From NCBI GenBank assembly GCA_965218095.1, contig OZ244587.1, forward strand, positions 3,712,001-3,776,000: DNA of 64,000 nt. Reading direction: 5' to 3'. This document shows, piece after piece, positions 2,403 through 29,047 of this stretch. Origin of the DNA: Candidatus Poribacteria bacterium (GTDB lineage Bacteria > Poribacteria > WGA-4E > PCPOR2b). The notes beneath the pieces are model-generated. The model ran no database searches and had not been told where the DNA came from. It was given only the letters and a program-made list of their open reading frames with translations. The position numbers and the translations under genes were made by a program. Position 1 is the first letter of the stretch. Each line of letters begins with the position of its first letter.

Positions 2403-4031
2403 ATGGCATTTCCATCACACGGCATTACCCATCGTCCAACCGTGACTGGCACGCGCGGCATGGTTTCCAGTGCACACCCTCTCGCAAGTTTGGCGGGTGC
2501 GCGCATCTTACTTCAGGGCGGCAGCGCTTTTGATGCGGTGGTTGCTGTCGCGTCCACCCTCAACGTTGCCGAACCGTATATGTCAGGCATCGCGGGCTGC
2601 GGTTACATGTTGATTTATAACGCAAAAGAAGAGGCGATCCACGTCCTCGACTACATGGGGACAAGTCCATACCAGGCGACGCTCGACGCTTTTTCAGAGC
2701 CGGGGTCAAGTGGGGTCGGCATCCGATCAGGCATGGTACCCGGCGCTTGCGGCGGTTGGATGGCGCTCCTCGACCGATATGGGAGCATGGATCGCGCGGA
2801 TATTTTTACGCCCGCAATCGAACTTGCGGAGAATGGCTACGCGGTAACAGCTAAAAACGCTCAGTTCATGGAAGGTGCGGCGTCCCGCTTCTCGCCAACG
2901 GGGGCGAAGATCATCATGTCCCGCGGACGAACGCCGCGCCCGGGCGAAATCTTAGTTCAGAAAGAACTTGCCCAGACCTTCCGAAAAGTGGTTGAAGGCG
3001 GCGCGGAGGTCTTTTATCGCGGTGAAATCGCGCAGGAGGTAGATCGGTTTTTCCACGAAAACGACGGCTTAATCACGGCGAAAGACCTTGAGGATTTTCA
3101 GGTGGAATGGCACACGCCTATCTCGACGACCTTCAAGGGGTATGAGATCTTCTGTCCGCCGCCGCCGTGTTCAGGATTTCAGTATCTAGAGACATTCAAT
3201 ATCTTAGAAAATGATCCCCTCGGCGATATCGGGCATAACTCGGCGCAATATCTCCACCTGCTGATCGAAGCGATTAAACTTGCAAGTGCAGACCGTGCGG
3301 AGTATACATGCGCATCAAATCCGCCAATCACCGGACTGCTCTCCAAAGGCTACGCCGCCGCCCAACGCAAACGAATCGGCTACTGTGCGGCGGTGGGCGG
3401 CGGGGAGCGTTACACGAAAGATAAGTTGCTTGGCGAGGTGCTCCCGGGCGATCCAAGCGAATGGATCAACGAATGCACAACTCACTTCGATGTCGTTGAC
3501 GGTGAGGGCAACGCTGTTGCGGTAACACAGAGTCTCGGATCGGGATTTGGTTCTGGGGTAGCTCTCGGCGAGACCGGGATGTTCCTCAATAACTTCATGA
3601 ACTGGTTTGATCTCTTGCCAGAAAGCCCAAACGTGATTGCTCCGCACAAAAAGATCGAGATGTGCATGTCCCCCTGCCAGGTTTGGAAAGATGGCAATCT
3701 ATTCGCGGTGATCGGGACGCCGGGAAGTCACGGCATTTTGCAAACAACCGCGCAGATGGTTTTGAACCTCATCGAGCACGGCATGAATATCCAGGCTGCG
3801 ATTGAGGCGCCGCGTGTTCGAGTTGACCGTCCCGGACCCGACGTTAGCATGGAAGGACGCATTCCCGCCGAGGTTAGGAACGAGCTTACTGCGCGGGGTC
3901 ACGATGTCCATGTAATGCCCGACTGGACGGCTGGGGTGGGGGGCGGTCAAGGCATTGCCGTCGATCAAGGGGAAGGTTCCCTCATGGGCGGCGCCGATCC
4001 GCGTCGTGACGGATACTCGATCGGCATCTGA
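2403..4031 (+). CDS. ggt: Gamma-glutamyltransferase family (Ntn hydrolase)
   Basis: GMVSSAHPLAS, nucleophile Thr in TTHFDVVD, FGSG, LNN, GTPG, and C-terminal GGADPRRDG. RBS AGGAGG. Confidence 0.92.
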   Translation: MAFPSHGITHRPTVTGTRGMVSSAHPLASLAGARILLQGGSAFDAVVAVASTLNVAEPYMSGIAGCGYMLIYNAKEEAIHVLDYMGTSPYQATLDAFSEPGSSGVGIRSGMVPGACGGWMALLDRYGSMDRADIFTPAIELAENGYAVTAKNAQFMEGAASRFSPTGAKIIMSRGRTPRPGEILVQKELAQTFRKVVEGGAEVFYRGEIAQEVDRFFHENDGLITAKDLEDFQVEWHTPISTTFKGYEIFCPPPPCSGFQYLETFNILENDPLGDIGHNSAQYLHLLIEAIKLASADRAEYTCASNPPITGLLSKGYAAAQRKRIGYCAAVGGGERYTKDKLLGEVLPGDPSEWINECTTHFDVVDGEGNAVAVTQSLGSGFGSGVALGETGMFLNNFMNWFDLLPESPNVIAPHKKIEMCMSPCQVWKDGNLFAVIGTPGSHGILQTTAQMVLNLIEHGMNIQAAIEAPRVRVDRPGPDVSMEGRIPAEVRNELTARGHDVHVMPDWTAGVGGGQGIAVDQGEGSLMGGADPRRDGYSIGI

Positions 4032-4067
4032 ATCCGGGGCTTCGCAATGGAGATGAGTTCAGGAATT

Positions 4068-4848
4068 GTGCGCCACGCAACGTAGGAATGCCAGTTGAAC
4101 TGGCTAGGACTACGGGGATGTCTTATACGTACTTGACTTAGGTATGTCCGGGTTAGGAAACGAAGAGCTGAAACACCGAAAGGCGGTGCCAAACATAGCA
4201 TATCGAGAAAAGGTGATTGAGGCGAAAATCGTTCAACGCTAGACGATCATCAACGTAAGATGGTCATGGTTAAGGCTTGATTACTTAAATCCTAGTCCTC
4301 AAGGCGGTAGAACTCACGGTAGCGTGGGAACGGTTGAAACGCTATCCCAGAAAATGATGAGGGATTGAACCCCTCTCTTATCACTCCGCTTTTCTGGCTT
4401 GCCCGTGATGAGTGGGATAAAAGGGACGAACGAGAAACCTAACCCCATCAGTTTTTTTTGAATCAACGAAAGCGTGGGATTGCCTAAGTTGGTTTTTTTT
4501 AGACTGATATGGTAACAGAGGCGTCGTGGCACCCAAAGTTTGGTCTGTAATGGACAAAGCAGTTGGTTTAATCCAACCTTTCCTGAAGGAATAAACCCAA
4601 GATAACGCGGGCGAACCCCCTCAGGAGAAGGGGGAAGGACGCTAGTCCAAACAAGGTAAAATAAGTCGGCGATGAACTGCCGAGCAGTTCGCTTGAGCCC
4701 AAAAGAGCCACTTTGTTTCGGAGTGAGAGCCATGTGCTCAGAAATGTAGCTCGCACGGTTCGGTGGGGAGGCAACGGTACCCCTCATCACCTCCATTCAT
4801 AATCATAATTATGAGTGGAGTTATAAGGGATCACGTGCTTTACCCAAT
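4068..4848 (+). ncRNA. Group II intron ribozyme, ORF-less (~781 nt)
   Basis: 5' GTGCG at 4068. Domain V GAGCCATGTGCTCA-GAAA-TGTAGCTCGCACGGTTC (4727-4761) carries the AGC triad. Domain VI pairs GGGGAGGCA with TGCTTT-A-CCC, with bulged A at 4842 and a 3' end AAT. Domain IV is very short and has no RT ORF. Confidence 0.85.
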
Positions 4849-4932
4849 CATTGGTTCACTGCACTTCCGAACTCCTGAACTCGTAAACCCTCTTCGCAGA
4901 TTGGGAGGATAGGGCCGCACGGAGATACTCCG

Positions 4933-5445
4933 ATGAACAAGACGATAATTGGTGTCATGGGTGGCGGACAAGCCAGTGAACAGGATATGGAGGTCGCTTA
5001 TCGATTGGGCGGTCTCATTGCAAAGGAAGGTTGGGTGCTCTTAAATGGTGGGCGTCAGGCAGGCATCATGGAAGCATCGGCAAAAGGCGCTAAAGATCAG
5101 GGTGGATTGACGGTTGGCATTTTGCCTGATAAAAATCCCGGCAGCGCTTCACGGTATATCGACATTCAAATTCTCACGGGCATGGGCGATGCGAGAAACT
5201 GTATCAATGTTCTGTCCAGCGACGTCGTAATCGCTTGTCCTGGGAAAGCAGGAACGCTTTCAGAGATTGCCCTGGCATTGAGGAGCCGTCGGAAGGTGAT
5301 TCTGCTGAATTTTGATGTCGGTAAGGCATTCGATACATATCTGAAAGAAAGCCTGCTTTTCAAGGTCAAGAGCCCTGAAGAGGCAATAGCTAAAGTCAAA
5401 CAAGTGCTGCGATCCGAGGTCAACACGACGCTCCGAAATTCTTGA
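4933..5445 (+). CDS. TIGR00725/LOG-family Rossmann-fold protein
   Basis: IGVMGG, LNGGxxGIMEA, TVGILP, GMGDARN and GTLSEIALA motifs. Confidence 0.88.
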   Translation: MNKTIIGVMGGGQASEQDMEVAYRLGGLIAKEGWVLLNGGRQAGIMEASAKGAKDQGGLTVGILPDKNPGSASRYIDIQILTGMGDARNCINVLSSDVVIACPGKAGTLSEIALALRSRRKVILLNFDVGKAFDTYLKESLLFKVKSPEEAIAKVKQVLRSEVNTTLRNS

Positions 5446-5452
5446 GTGTCTG

Positions 5453-5510
5453 TTACGCATCACGTTTTACGCAATACGCAATACGCATTACGTTGTGCGT
5501 TTTACGCATC
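5453..5510 (+). repeat. 7-bp periodic repeat (TTACGCA/TCACGTT type)
   Basis: ttacgcatcacgttttacgcaatacgcaatacgcattacg. Related copies at ~17231-17260 (minus), 59761 and 62821. Confidence 0.75.
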
Positions 5511-5519
5511 ATCAACAAA

Positions 5520-6620
5520 ATGTCCAAAGGAAACATTACACTCGAAGCGGTTACAAAGCGTTTCGGCGATACCGTTGCTGTTGACAGCGTGTCGCTCCAG
5601 ATCCAAAGTGGTGAATTCTTTTCACTGCTGGGACCGAGCGGATGTGGGAAGACAACCACGCTGCGGATGGTCGGTGGTTTTGAATATCCAACTTCAGGAG
5701 AGATCTACGTTAGCGATCAACCGATGGGACGGACGCCACCTTTCCACCGCGATGTCAATACTGTATTCCAGAGTTATGCTCTGTTTCCTCATAAAACGGT
5801 CGCCCAAAATATCGCCTTTGGGCTTCAGATGAAAAAGCTTCCGAAAAAAGAGATCGCTGATCAGGTCGATCAATTTTTGGACATGGTTCGCTTATCGGGG
5901 TATGGACACCGGAAACCCAACGCACTATCCGGTGGTGAGAAGCAGCGCGTCGCGCTCGCCCGTGCGCTAATCAACCACCCATCGATCTTATTGCTCGACG
6001 AGCCCCTCGCGGCGCTTGACCTGAAGCTGCGGAAACAGATGCAGCTTGAACTTAAAGCCCTGCAACGTGAGGTTGGGATCACCTTTGTCTATGTCACGCA
6101 TGATCAGGGTGAAGCGTTGGCATTGTCGGATCGGATTGCTGTCATGAACATCGGAAAAATCCTTCAGGTCGGCACGCCTGCTGAAATCTACGACCAGCCA
6201 AACAACCGTTTCGTGGCAGACTTCATCGGAACATCGAATTTCTTCGTGGGAACGTTAGTCAAGGTCGGCGGTGAGTGGGCGGAAGTTCAATCAGACCTCG
6301 ATCCACAGGTCCGATTCGTCGGACGGTATAACGGAGCCCCCGATTTCATCGTGGGCGATGCTATCACCGTTGCGATTCGCCCGGAGCGGATTATGCTTAC
6401 TGGCAAGTTTGATGGAGAAGATGTCAACCAGATCAACGGGCGCATCCAGGATGAAATGTACCTTGGCACGACGATCCAATATACCGTCCTGGCCTTTGAT
6501 CACATTCCCGTAATTGTTCACCAACAGAACAGAGGACTGGGAAACACGGATCGGATACAGCGTGGCGATGTGGTTTACATGAAATGGCTCCCCGAAAATG
6601 CAACCGTCTTGAGAGGTTGA
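5520..6620 (+). CDS. potA: Polyamine ABC transporter ATP-binding subunit
   Basis: Walker A GPSGCGKTT, VNTVFQSYALFPH, LSGGEKQRVALARAL, LLDEPLAALDLKLRKQMQ, and a C-terminal TOBE-like region. Confidence 0.88.
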   Translation: MSKGNITLEAVTKRFGDTVAVDSVSLQIQSGEFFSLLGPSGCGKTTTLRMVGGFEYPTSGEIYVSDQPMGRTPPFHRDVNTVFQSYALFPHKTVAQNIAFGLQMKKLPKKEIADQVDQFLDMVRLSGYGHRKPNALSGGEKQRVALARALINHPSILLLDEPLAALDLKLRKQMQLELKALQREVGITFVYVTHDQGEALALSDRIAVMNIGKILQVGTPAEIYDQPNNRFVADFIGTSNFFVGTLVKVGGEWAEVQSDLDPQVRFVGRYNGAPDFIVGDAITVAIRPERIMLTGKFDGEDVNQINGRIQDEMYLGTTIQYTVLAFDHIPVIVHQQNRGLGNTDRIQRGDVVYMKWLPENATVLRG

Positions 6621-6971: not shown

Positions 6972-7790
6972 GTTCTGTTGACATTTGAGTATAAGGTTGT
7001 GGCATAATAGAAGAATGATGCCAATAACCTTACCCGATGACCAATGGAAAAAGATATACTCGTTTCTTCTAACTTGTCCCACCATCTATGTTGGCAACGA
7101 AGCGACAACACGCCGCTTTATCGAAGCGGTTCTCTAGGCGACCCGTAGCGGTGCTCAATGGCGGATTCTGCCAGACACCTATGGTAAATCGAACACCCTC
7201 TATAAGCGTTTTGCTCGGTGGTGCGACAAAGGGGGCTTCACACAGATCCACCACCACTTCGCCGCCGACCCCGATATCGAGTCGCTTATTGTGGACAGTA
7301 CAATCATTCGAGCGCACCCGTGTGCGGCGGGCGCCTTAAAAAAAAGGGTGGCACTGAAAACCAAGCGTTAGGCTGCTCTCGCGGGGGATTCAGTACAAAA
7401 ATTCACATCACAGTTGACGGCCTGGGTAATCCCCTAAGAATACATCTGACGCCCGGTCAAAGAAACGACATAGCGGAAGCAGAAGGGTTGATACTTGGAT
7501 ATAAAAGTGAGTATGTGATTGGAGACAAGGGATATGACTCCGACAATTTTATCGCGGTTATTGAGGCGAATGGAGCGATTGCGGTGATACCGCCCAAAAG
7601 TCATCGTGTGGATCAAAGAGATTACAACAAACATCTGTACAAAGAGAGACATCGGGTTGAATGTTTCATTAACAAGATAAAATGGTATCGCCGCATCTTC
7701 TCTCGGTTCGAGAAGTTATCTATCTGTTATTTTGGATTTCTCAGCTTTGTCTCCACTCTTATATGGCTCCCTTGAAATGTCAACAGAACC
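6971..7790 (+). mobile_element. IS5-family (IS427-like) insertion sequence; transposase inactivated
   Basis: 16-bp TIRs GGTTCTGTTGACATTT / AAATGTCAACAGAACC with TA duplication in CTAG. orfA from 7015 has an in-frame TAG at 7135 where W is expected, then an A8 slippery site at ~7339. orfB has GFSTKIH, DKGYDSD and YKERHRVECFINKIK. Confidence 0.92.
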
Positions 7791-27858: not shown

Positions 27859-27868
27859 CTTTAAGGTA

Positions 27869-28165
27869 GTATGCCGCGCAAGCGGTGAGTAGAAGCACCA
27901 GTATAACGGGTCAGGATTGTTAGAATATCCTGTATGCACCTGTGTTAAGCTTATAGCGATAGATTGAGAGTCCGAAAGGACAAGCTGAACTTAGCAGTGC
28001 GTCATGCAAGGTGATCAGCGTAAAACGGTGAGCACGGGTGGATTTCCACAAGCCCAAGTCCTAACGGATTCAGTCAAGTCGGTAGCGTATGGATCCTCCT
28101 GGAATCGGACCAGAAGTGAGGTGATAGCTCACTTCTGGCTTATGGCACGCAACACCAGAGAGTAC
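27869..28165 (+). ncRNA. Group II intron domain I remnant (3'-truncated)
   Basis: Collinear with 4068-4540: GTATGCCGCGCAA/GTGCGCCACGCAA, CCAGTATAACGGG/CCAGTTGAACTGG, ATCAGCGTAAAACGG/ATCAACGTAAGATGG, AGTCCT..CGGTAGCGT and TGGCAC. GNRA hairpins present; no domain V. Confidence 0.65.
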
Positions 28166-28171
28166 ATTTTG

Positions 28172-29047
28172 TCAATCTTCATTGACCACCCAGAACGGCT
28201 GCGTCCATGCACGGCGATCGCCGACGCCCCAACATTCAAAGCGGACGTAGGTTGCGTCATCCGGGACATGGACCTCAAGCACATGAGCGTCGACCATGGC
28301 AAAGCCTCGTCCGTTATCACACAGTACGGCGATGCGATGGGCGTTATATGTCTCAATGCGGACATGCAGACCGTCCACTTTGATGTGGTCAATCATGACG
28401 CCGGTTGAAGCATAAAACCTCCCCTGGCGTAGCGCCTCCAGGATGCCCTCGCGCGTACGCGCCTTCACATAGGCCATAACCCAGCCGTGCCCGGCGTCGA
28501 CGGGGCGGTGGTAGTCGTCGCTGGCAAAGCCCCAGAGCCGGCGAGCTTGACTGAGCAGGATGTCCCACTTGTCGGTGGCGTAGGCGCTACCTGCTGCACG
28601 CAAACCGTTGGCGTTGAAGATCTCCAGTCCCAAGTAGCCCCTCCATCGCTGCATCAACTCAAGGCTGCAATTGTCAAACTCCCGACCAGTATTGGGATGA
28701 TTCACAATCGCGAATCCAGCGCCAGCGTTGATTTCGTCAATGACCTTCTGCCTATCTTCGTACGGCTCAATCCGGTGGTTGGCGCCAACATGTAGGATAT
28801 GTGGTCCACCCTTGGATACCTCATTACCGGGGATAAGGATTATCCCGTGGTGGTTCCAATCGCTGATGTCGTTGAAGCTATAGAACTTGTCATGTTCAGT
28901 TAAACCGAGGAATCCGTAGCCGAGCCGTGCGTAGTGACTGATTAAGTCGAAGGGCCTATCCGCGGGTAGTGGGTGTGCGTGCAGATTGCCGCGCAGCCAT
29001 AAGCCGTCCGTCAGGTCATGGTAGGGATGATCAAGGAATTTGGGCAT
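28172..29047 (-). CDS. PHP-domain metallohydrolase (CehA/McbA-like)
   Basis: RGNLHAH, LTEHD, GNEVS, NHP, LEIFN, ASDDYH, GRFYASTG and AWTQPF. Confidence 0.85.
   Translation of the reverse strand: MPKFLDHPYHDLTDGLWLRGNLHAHPLPADRPFDLISHYARLGYGFLGLTEHDKFYSFNDISDWNHHGIILIPGNEVSKGGPHILHVGANHRIEPYEDRQKVIDEINAGAGFAIVNHPNTGREFDNCSLELMQRWRGYLGLEIFNANGLRAAGSAYATDKWDILLSQARRLWGFASDDYHRPVDAGHGWVMAYVKARTREGILEALRQGRFYASTGVMIDHIKVDGLHVRIETYNAHRIAVLCDNGRGFAMVDAHVLEVHVPDDATYVRFECWGVGDRRAWTQPFWVVNED

Follow-up and report, generated by a model that had tools for sequence, protein, structure and literature searches.

The locus described here raises the question of what becomes of a group II intron in a bacterial chromosome that offers it no protein partner. 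The window, a stretch of 64,000 nucleotides (nt) of contig OZ244587.1 from a Candidatus Poribacteria bacterium, carries at positions 4068–4848 of the forward (+) strand a six-domain group II intron of 781 nt without an open reading frame (ORF). The intron follows the stop codon of a gamma-glutamyltranspeptidase gene (ggt) and precedes the start of a SLOG-family gene; all three share one orientation. A model that had been given only the letters (the sequence-only reading) had proposed a full-length ORF-less group II intron with a short domain IV, either depending on a trans-acting protein or domesticated as a ribozyme, and possibly decaying. The identification was borne out by an Rfam match, a six-domain fold and a longest stop-free frame on the + strand of 45 codons. 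As to its state, the element is probably a genuine Ll.LtrB-like intron from which the ORF was deleted, now stranded mainly as a passenger, with splicing that is slow or lost.

The Rfam family RF00029 (Intron_gpII) matches positions 4725–4848 (+) over its full model (1–77) with 42.3 bits, the gathering score being 40. The corresponding E-value is 6.1e-05 for the 64-kb window and 1.1e-06 in a permissive scan of 3900–5000. RF00029 is the sole Rfam family at or above its gathering score within the window. The sequence-only reading had proposed a second Rfam check, with the group-II-D1D4 models, and this one failed: there were no matches at E-values up to 10 on 3900–5000, which speaks against the identification as an intron. 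These models represent particular subclasses only, and domains I–IV were established by comparison with relatives, not by Rfam. With a score only 2.3 bits above the cut-off and no D1–D4 match, the element could be thought a chance match to the domain V/VI model where no intron exists. This explanation is exceedingly improbable, being refuted by full-length collinearity and covariation with ten relatives, including protein-encoding ones.

The relatives were gathered by BLAST against related genomes and by two pattern scans of public collections. These searches yielded ten full-length sequences of 717–1055 nt, from genomes of Candidatus Poribacteria and from metagenomes. With the intron at 4068–4848 included, all eleven run collinearly between GUGCG and the 3′ end, and this intron shares 55–61% identity with the other ten. 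The pattern scans returned 4 loci on genome contigs and 43 on metagenome contigs; eight of these 47 share more than domain V/VI, and none is a closer relative than about 66% identity. An order-wide BLAST search with the intron (159 genomes) found no homolog beyond those from the closer relatives.

RNAalifold, applied to the alignment of the eleven sequences, predicted 170 pairs in 30 helices forming six domains. Changes on both sides (compensatory) are found for 109 of the 170 pairs. Standard pairs occupy 93.2% of the cells, compared with 75.0% in shuffled alignments, and none of 500 shuffles reached the observed value for any measure. When the 3′ partners were slid by one to three columns, pairing was only 36–43%; as the structure was predicted from the same alignment, this control is biased in its favour, and the compensatory counts are the stronger evidence. 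The intron at 4068–4848 keeps 147 of 166 consensus pairs.

All domains lie on the + strand. The intron starts with GTGCG (GUGCG in the RNA) at 4068–4072 and ends with AAU at 4848, where the RF00029 match also ends. Domain I (4068–4477), delineated from the consensus fold and covariation, keeps 94 of its 103 pairs and is closed by a helix that joins CCACGC (4073–4078) to GCGUGG (near 4472–4477). The domain II hairpin (4480–4515) keeps all ten of its pairs and contains CCUAAG (4483–4488) and UAUGG (4508–4512), which may form a tetraloop-receptor motif. Domain III (4520–4643) keeps 15 of 18 pairs and its closing helix (helix 24) covaries. Domain IV (4645–4723) is short, as had been proposed, with 79 nt and no ORF. 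It keeps 5 of 9 pairs, an effect of the alignment register; the isolated domain folds into a long stem. An antisense ORF of 160 residues at 4314–4796 (−) was treated as spurious, as it has no Pfam match.

Domain V (4727–4761) is 35 nt long. The Rfam alignment and the fold of the isolated domain place the AGC triad at 4728–4730 and the GAAA loop at 4741–4744. Domain VI (4764–4846) is extended and keeps 12 of 12 pairs, with lineage-specific compensatory pairs. Its minimum-energy fold includes a distal hairpin of 13 base pairs (bp) at 4791–4820. Throughout the family, domain VI is extended and carries a distal hairpin, the present copy having the longest such domain; at the equivalent of 4791–4820, the relatives have hairpins of 4–7 bp or loops. 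The branch-point A (4842), seven bases from the last position of the intron (4848), is bulged in both the Rfam alignment and the fold, and its column is invariant in all eleven family members. The features that the sequence-only reading had listed, namely GTGCG, AGC, GAAA, the 13-bp hairpin and the bulged A seven nt from the end, are all present.

The origin of the ORF-less state can be followed in the family. Two full-length introns, L103 in genome G017 and L104 in genome G001, contain ORFs of 618 and 625 residues, respectively, and their proteins carry RVT_1, Intron_maturas2 and AI2M-like HNH domains. The L103 protein aligns with LtrA from Lactococcus lactis over residues 41–605 (E = 3.1e-122). 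A metagenome member, L065:83-1137 (−), keeps about 250 nt of the N-terminal frame of a reverse transcriptase (RT) in domain IV and is an intermediate stage of ORF loss. Because of this remnant and of the LtrA-like ORFs of L103 and L104, the family is considered an Ll.LtrB-like lineage of which several members are ORF-deleted. The RNA of the intron at 4068–4848 is 71–74% identical in segments to that of L103, and this homology at the RNA level places it as an ORF-deleted member of the lineage. The same route of ORF deletion has been described for Thermosynechococcus introns (PMC2882425).

The genome that bears the intron is a single contig of 6.35 Mb, rated 93.87% complete. RF00029 has 23 matches in it, the intron at 4068–4848 being the weakest. 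A search for sister copies, as suggested by the sequence-only reading, returned just one further match, a 139-nt fragment of domain I with 74% identity; the intron is single in its genome. RF00029 match 21 of the genome (5730063–5730142) was rejected as a sister, having only domain V/VI in common. Most of the 23 matches belong to another intron family, with copies of 715–2452 nt that are 69–86% identical to its protein-encoding copy. The latter, at C1:598220-600671 (2452 nt), differs in RNA family from the intron at 4068–4848 and is the only group II intron of the genome with a protein gene. This RT/maturase/HNH gene (598673–600489) is interrupted twice, first by an in-frame TGA and some 70 nt later by a frameshift within the conserved GTPQGG motif. 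Some 20 further members of its family, copies or fragments, have lengths of 85–2087 nt.

The genome yielded a single GIIM match and two loci matching RVT_1. The other RT (C1:1094679-1096256, 526 residues) matches RVT_1 and no maturase model. When the genome was searched with the LtrA-like protein of the Ll.LtrB-like family, only the pseudogene 598673–600489 was returned, with 40% identity, so that the RT-encoding parent envisaged by the sequence-only reading was not found. The assembled chromosome therefore encodes neither a cognate protein nor any intact group II RT/maturase. The intron is a single, old and diverged copy in the chromosome of a poribacterial sponge symbiont, without a cognate protein. 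The window contains a second group II fragment at 27860–28200 (+), which is domain I-like, resembles the 5′ portion of the Ll.LtrB-like RNA family and is 68.8% identical to the L036 intron over 28010–28149; it appears to start with GTATG, not GTGCG, and Rfam finds no domain V nearby.

These observations bear on the proposal that the intron is non-autonomous and yet mobile, through a maturase that is encoded elsewhere and serves both its splicing and its mobilisation in trans, in the manner of TeI3. Trans-mobilisation has been demonstrated experimentally (PMC2882425), and G017 contains several copies of relatives that score identically for domain V/VI and have LtrA-like genes next to them. In the present genome, however, the copy is single, the only intron-type protein gene is a pseudogene from another family, and the match of the intron to its 5′ exon, detailed below, is poor for one of the two pairings. 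Dependence on a trans-acting protein, as first proposed, thus finds no partner in this genome, and mobilisation in trans is quite improbable.

The exon-binding sites (EBS) and intron-binding sites (IBS) were located on the + strand using the loop offsets of the relatives. EBS2 (GAACUC followed by A, 4310–4316) faces IBS2 in the 5′ exon (U followed by GAGUUC, 4054–4060); it makes six of six Watson–Crick pairs with positions −13 to −8 of the exon, and a seventh could form. EBS1 (AACCCC, 4368–4373) is found at offset 8 of a domain I loop, as is EBS1 in all ten relatives, and is preceded by the delta base G4367. Its match to IBS1 (GGAAUU, 4062–4067) is partial, with 4 of 6 pairs, compared with 5–6 in the ten relatives. 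The mean number of Watson–Crick pairs is higher with cognate than with swapped exons, both for EBS1 (5.1 vs 3.6) and for EBS2 (4.5 vs 3.2).

The first base of the 3′ exon, C4849 (+), is a candidate delta′ that can pair with G4367. By reading of the loops, delta–delta′ is a Watson–Crick pair in seven of the eleven members and a G–U pair in one more. A delta–delta′ contact made by the base next to EBS1 is the arrangement of subgroup IIA. The candidate gamma base is A4517 (+) in J2/3. The gamma–gamma′ pair combines A with a terminal U in the intron at 4068–4848 and in L088, and G with a terminal C in eight others; this covariation supports the 3′ end at 4848. A column of the EBS3 type was also sought and rejected, as the best one (8 of 11) lies inside a helix. 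The letters of EBS2, GAACUC, occur twice in the 3′ exon (4869–4874 and 4877–4882). A perfect inverted repeat of 10 bp spans the two exons, with arms at 4055–4064 in the 5′ exon and 4873–4882 in the 3′ exon that would stand about 30 nt apart after splicing.

The principal departure from the family is found in domain V. It contains an A·C mismatch (4732·4756) and a bulge made of U4751 and C4752, both recognized in the sequence-only reading, and an extra U4747 in the upper helix that had not been listed. In the alignment, 14 of 14 domain V pairs are formed in each of the ten relatives, and 11 of 14 in the intron at 4068–4848. The first base of the bulge, which is followed by a variable base in the relatives, is A in all ten of them and U in this intron. 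The folding energy of the domain is −10.7 kcal/mol, compared with −15.2 to −19.6 kcal/mol in the relatives. At columns on which nine lineages otherwise agree, the intron has 14 private changes, and three of these fall within the 35 nt of domain V.

A 2015 review (PMC4424553) assigns the coordination of the catalytic metals to the AGC triad together with the AY bulge. RmInt1 could still be excised but no longer reverse-spliced after a single alteration next to the bulge (PMC4496777). Judged from the alignment and the predicted folds, the intron has a largely maintained architecture and a weakened catalytic hairpin. We lean towards an impairment of its splicing.

The following history is proposed. 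An ancestor would have reached the spacer downstream of ggt by reverse splicing, at a site that fits EBS2, delta and partly EBS1, and in the orientation of the flanking genes. Mobility would have been lost; the intron can presumably no longer move because the chromosome encodes no cognate or intact group II protein. Removal from a ggt–SLOG read-through transcript would need self-splicing or a host factor. As no reading frame depends on this removal, selection for splicing is expected to be weak. The catalytic domain V would have started to drift, with its A·C mismatch, UC bulge and extra U, and splicing would therefore have become slow or been lost.

RNA from the locus was available from four sponge metatranscriptome runs, as assembled contigs. 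Parts of the intron and of the SLOG gene are represented at depth 2–4 by pieces that show no differences. One contig from a variant strain, found in one run and spanning 4036–4313, crosses the 5′ splice site unspliced. No spliced joint was found in any of the four contig sets, in which positions 4849–4915 are almost uncovered, the depth is 2–4 and rare forms are dropped. The domain V/VI of a related intron is present at depth 83–109 in runs X3 and X4 (over window positions 4752–4784), far more than the depth of 2–4 at this locus; its domain V is canonical, the long domain VI hairpin is missing, and none of the 23 matches of the genome corresponds to it.

Several observations weigh against a decaying, stranded intron. 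The 14 private changes are fewer than in the deep lineages L070 (23) and L063 (28). Domain VI keeps all 12 pairs, with pair types that are private to this intron, gamma–gamma′ covaries, and the AGC triad, the GAAA loop and the branch-point A are intact. A 35-nt domain V with an extra base is found in another intron of the genome and folds at −19.5 kcal/mol; because the topology is the same, the extra U4747 alone is not a defect. A variant-strain contig differs from the window at 4092, 4123 and 4134, and all three changes (C–G to U–G once, U–G to C–G twice) lie in helices and keep the pair, with the reservation that the contig has a depth of 2.9 and may contain errors. The RNA contigs may contain DNA, and neither show nor exclude splicing. 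Finally, a completeness of 93.87% leaves room for a plasmid-borne maturase. The suggestion that the intron is decaying therefore held for domain V, which deviates, and not for the element at large, where most consensus pairs are kept and private changes are less numerous than in two deep lineages. The whole-fold score was discarded as a sign of decay: it amounts to 86–89% for the intron at 4068–4848, 95–98% in the majority clade and 81–88% in the other deep lineages, and does not show decay because the consensus leans towards the majority clade.

Much of this evidence would also suit a fully competent, maturase-independent intron like C.te.I1, efficiently removed from a ggt–SLOG–potA transcript by self-splicing or with a host factor and tolerating the changes in domain V. 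The overall conservation of pairs, the three strain differences that preserve pairing, the covariation of domain VI and gamma–gamma′, and the complete EBS2/IBS2 match are as expected for such an intron. So is the lack of any terminator-like site on the + strand between ggt, the intron and the SLOG gene in a simple scan. There is also one bacterial precedent in a genome without an intron protein (PMC4424553). Against this stand a domain V far less stable than in any of the ten relatives, with U in place of A in the bulge, and an EBS1/IBS1 match inferior to theirs. No spliced joint was seen, in contig data that are weak, and nothing obvious selects for splicing, no frame needing it. A competent intron is possible, if doubtful; an ORF-deleted intron that has become mainly a passenger is the reading retained.

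Upstream of the intron, ggt occupies 2403–4031 (+). Downstream, a gene of the SLOG cluster-4 family (4933–5445, +) is followed by a gene for a PotA-like ABC ATPase with a TOBE domain (5442–6620, +) and by a DDE transposase fragment (7218–7775). The neighbour that the sequence-only reading had called LOG is a protein of the SLOG superfamily. The GC content drops from 0.54–0.58 to 0.47–0.49 at the intron (at about 4000). The ggt gene is conserved in 33 of 40 relatives, where the match stops at the ggt stop codon. Behind it, no SLOG or PotA match was found in any of the 11 loci examined among these 33, and the sequence is unrelated; in several relatives, the gene in this position has an N-terminus that may be CstA-like. 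The downstream SLOG protein was found in none of 28 relatives of the same family at E ≤ 1e-10.

The intron therefore lies at a synteny break, with no empty site in the relatives. A comparison with an intron-free allele, which had been proposed as a test, is inapplicable because a different gene follows ggt in all 11 loci of the relatives. The intron's own genome contains no paralogous empty site either, both 120-nt flanks being unique. From the absence of the SLOG gene in relatives, the drop in GC and the transposase fragment, the stretch that follows ggt appears to have been acquired, or rearranged, specifically in this lineage.

This neighbourhood also bears on the idea of a domesticated, intron-derived RNA with a host function, for example a structured spacer controlling the expression or processing of SLOG-potA. 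The orientation shared with both neighbours, without a terminator-like site between them, would suit such a role, as would the occupation of the same site in a slightly different strain and the exon inverted repeat (4055–4064/4873–4882), which could join the flanks. However, there is no orthologous locus to show conservation, processing is without evidence, the features are those of an ordinary intron lineage, and the neighbourhood looks recently rearranged. The sequence-only reading had put forward a domesticated ribozyme, for which no positive evidence was obtained, and domestication in any form is very improbable.

Taken alone, the element adds another case to the ORF-less group II introns of bacteria and is probably a decaying passenger; its setting is less ordinary. 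Bacterial ORF-less introns are rare and nearly always reside beside a related protein-encoding intron, with C.te.I1 as the exception, according to the 2015 review (PMC4424553). A 2022 survey (PMC8919778) reports that they are increased in certain genomes. In 29 genomes of the poribacterial family, 150 RF00029 matches (E ≤ 0.001) were found vs 15 GIIM matches, the latter number being a lower bound as GIIM detects LtrA-type proteins weakly (E of about 3e-4 to 5e-4). ORF-less introns of this known kind are unusually common in this bacterial group. The sister genome G023 has six copies of an ORF-less intron of about 760 nt with 98–100% identity (for example C1:1056341-1057107; loci L105 and L106). 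Within the single contig of this genome, rated 97% complete, no RVT_1, GIIM or LtrA-like match was found. This suggests a recent spread without a resident intron protein, or the very recent loss of one. A search of a literature collection for a link between Poribacteria and group II introns returned nothing relevant, only general evolutionary essays as judged by their titles and the opening of their abstracts.

It is conceivable, if rather unlikely, that the intron at 4068–4848 and roughly twenty other ORF-less or degenerate chromosomal copies are still spliced without a maturase, alone or by a host factor. If so, poribacterial sponge symbionts would be a bacterial counterpart of organelles, keeping protein-less introns as splicing-only elements. 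Introns that splice in this way would provide a natural system for the survival and spread of group II introns without a protein of their own, in an uncultured symbiont lineage. This issue is relevant to how the introns of organelles and nuclei came to rely on host factors.

Four known systems invite comparison. The closest in lineage is Ll.LtrB with its protein LtrA (structures 5g2x, 7d0f and others). The likeness resides in the L103 and L104 proteins, with their RT, type II maturase and HNH domains, and in the base 5′ of EBS1, for which the opening base of the 3′ exon is a possible partner. The intron at 4068–4848 differs from Ll.LtrB by the lack of an ORF, a domain IV of 79 nt, a much longer domain VI, and a 35-nt domain V with an A·C mismatch and a UC bulge; its genome contains no LtrA-like gene. 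TeI3 from Thermosynechococcus elongatus (Mohr, Ghanem and Lambowitz 2010, PMC2882425) resembles it in deriving from a protein-encoding intron by deletion of the domain IV ORF, and in residing in a genome rich in intron copies, of which the majority lack an ORF and a large number are intergenic. However, TeI3 is multi-copy, occupies well-matched sites and is served by intact driver proteins of related introns (PMC2882425), whereas the poribacterial intron is single, pairs 4 of 6 bases between EBS1 and IBS1, and has no intact driver in its genome.

C.te.I1 from Clostridium tetani is likewise ORF-less, in a genome without a usable intron-encoded protein (PMC4424553). It self-splices robustly in vitro according to the same source, whereas the domain V of the intron at 4068–4848 looks weakened. 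Organellar genomes, finally, share with the poribacterial one the presence of many ORF-less group II introns and of few or no intron proteins (PMC4424553). Organellar introns reside in essential genes and have known host factors (PMC4424553), whereas the intron at 4068–4848 is intergenic.

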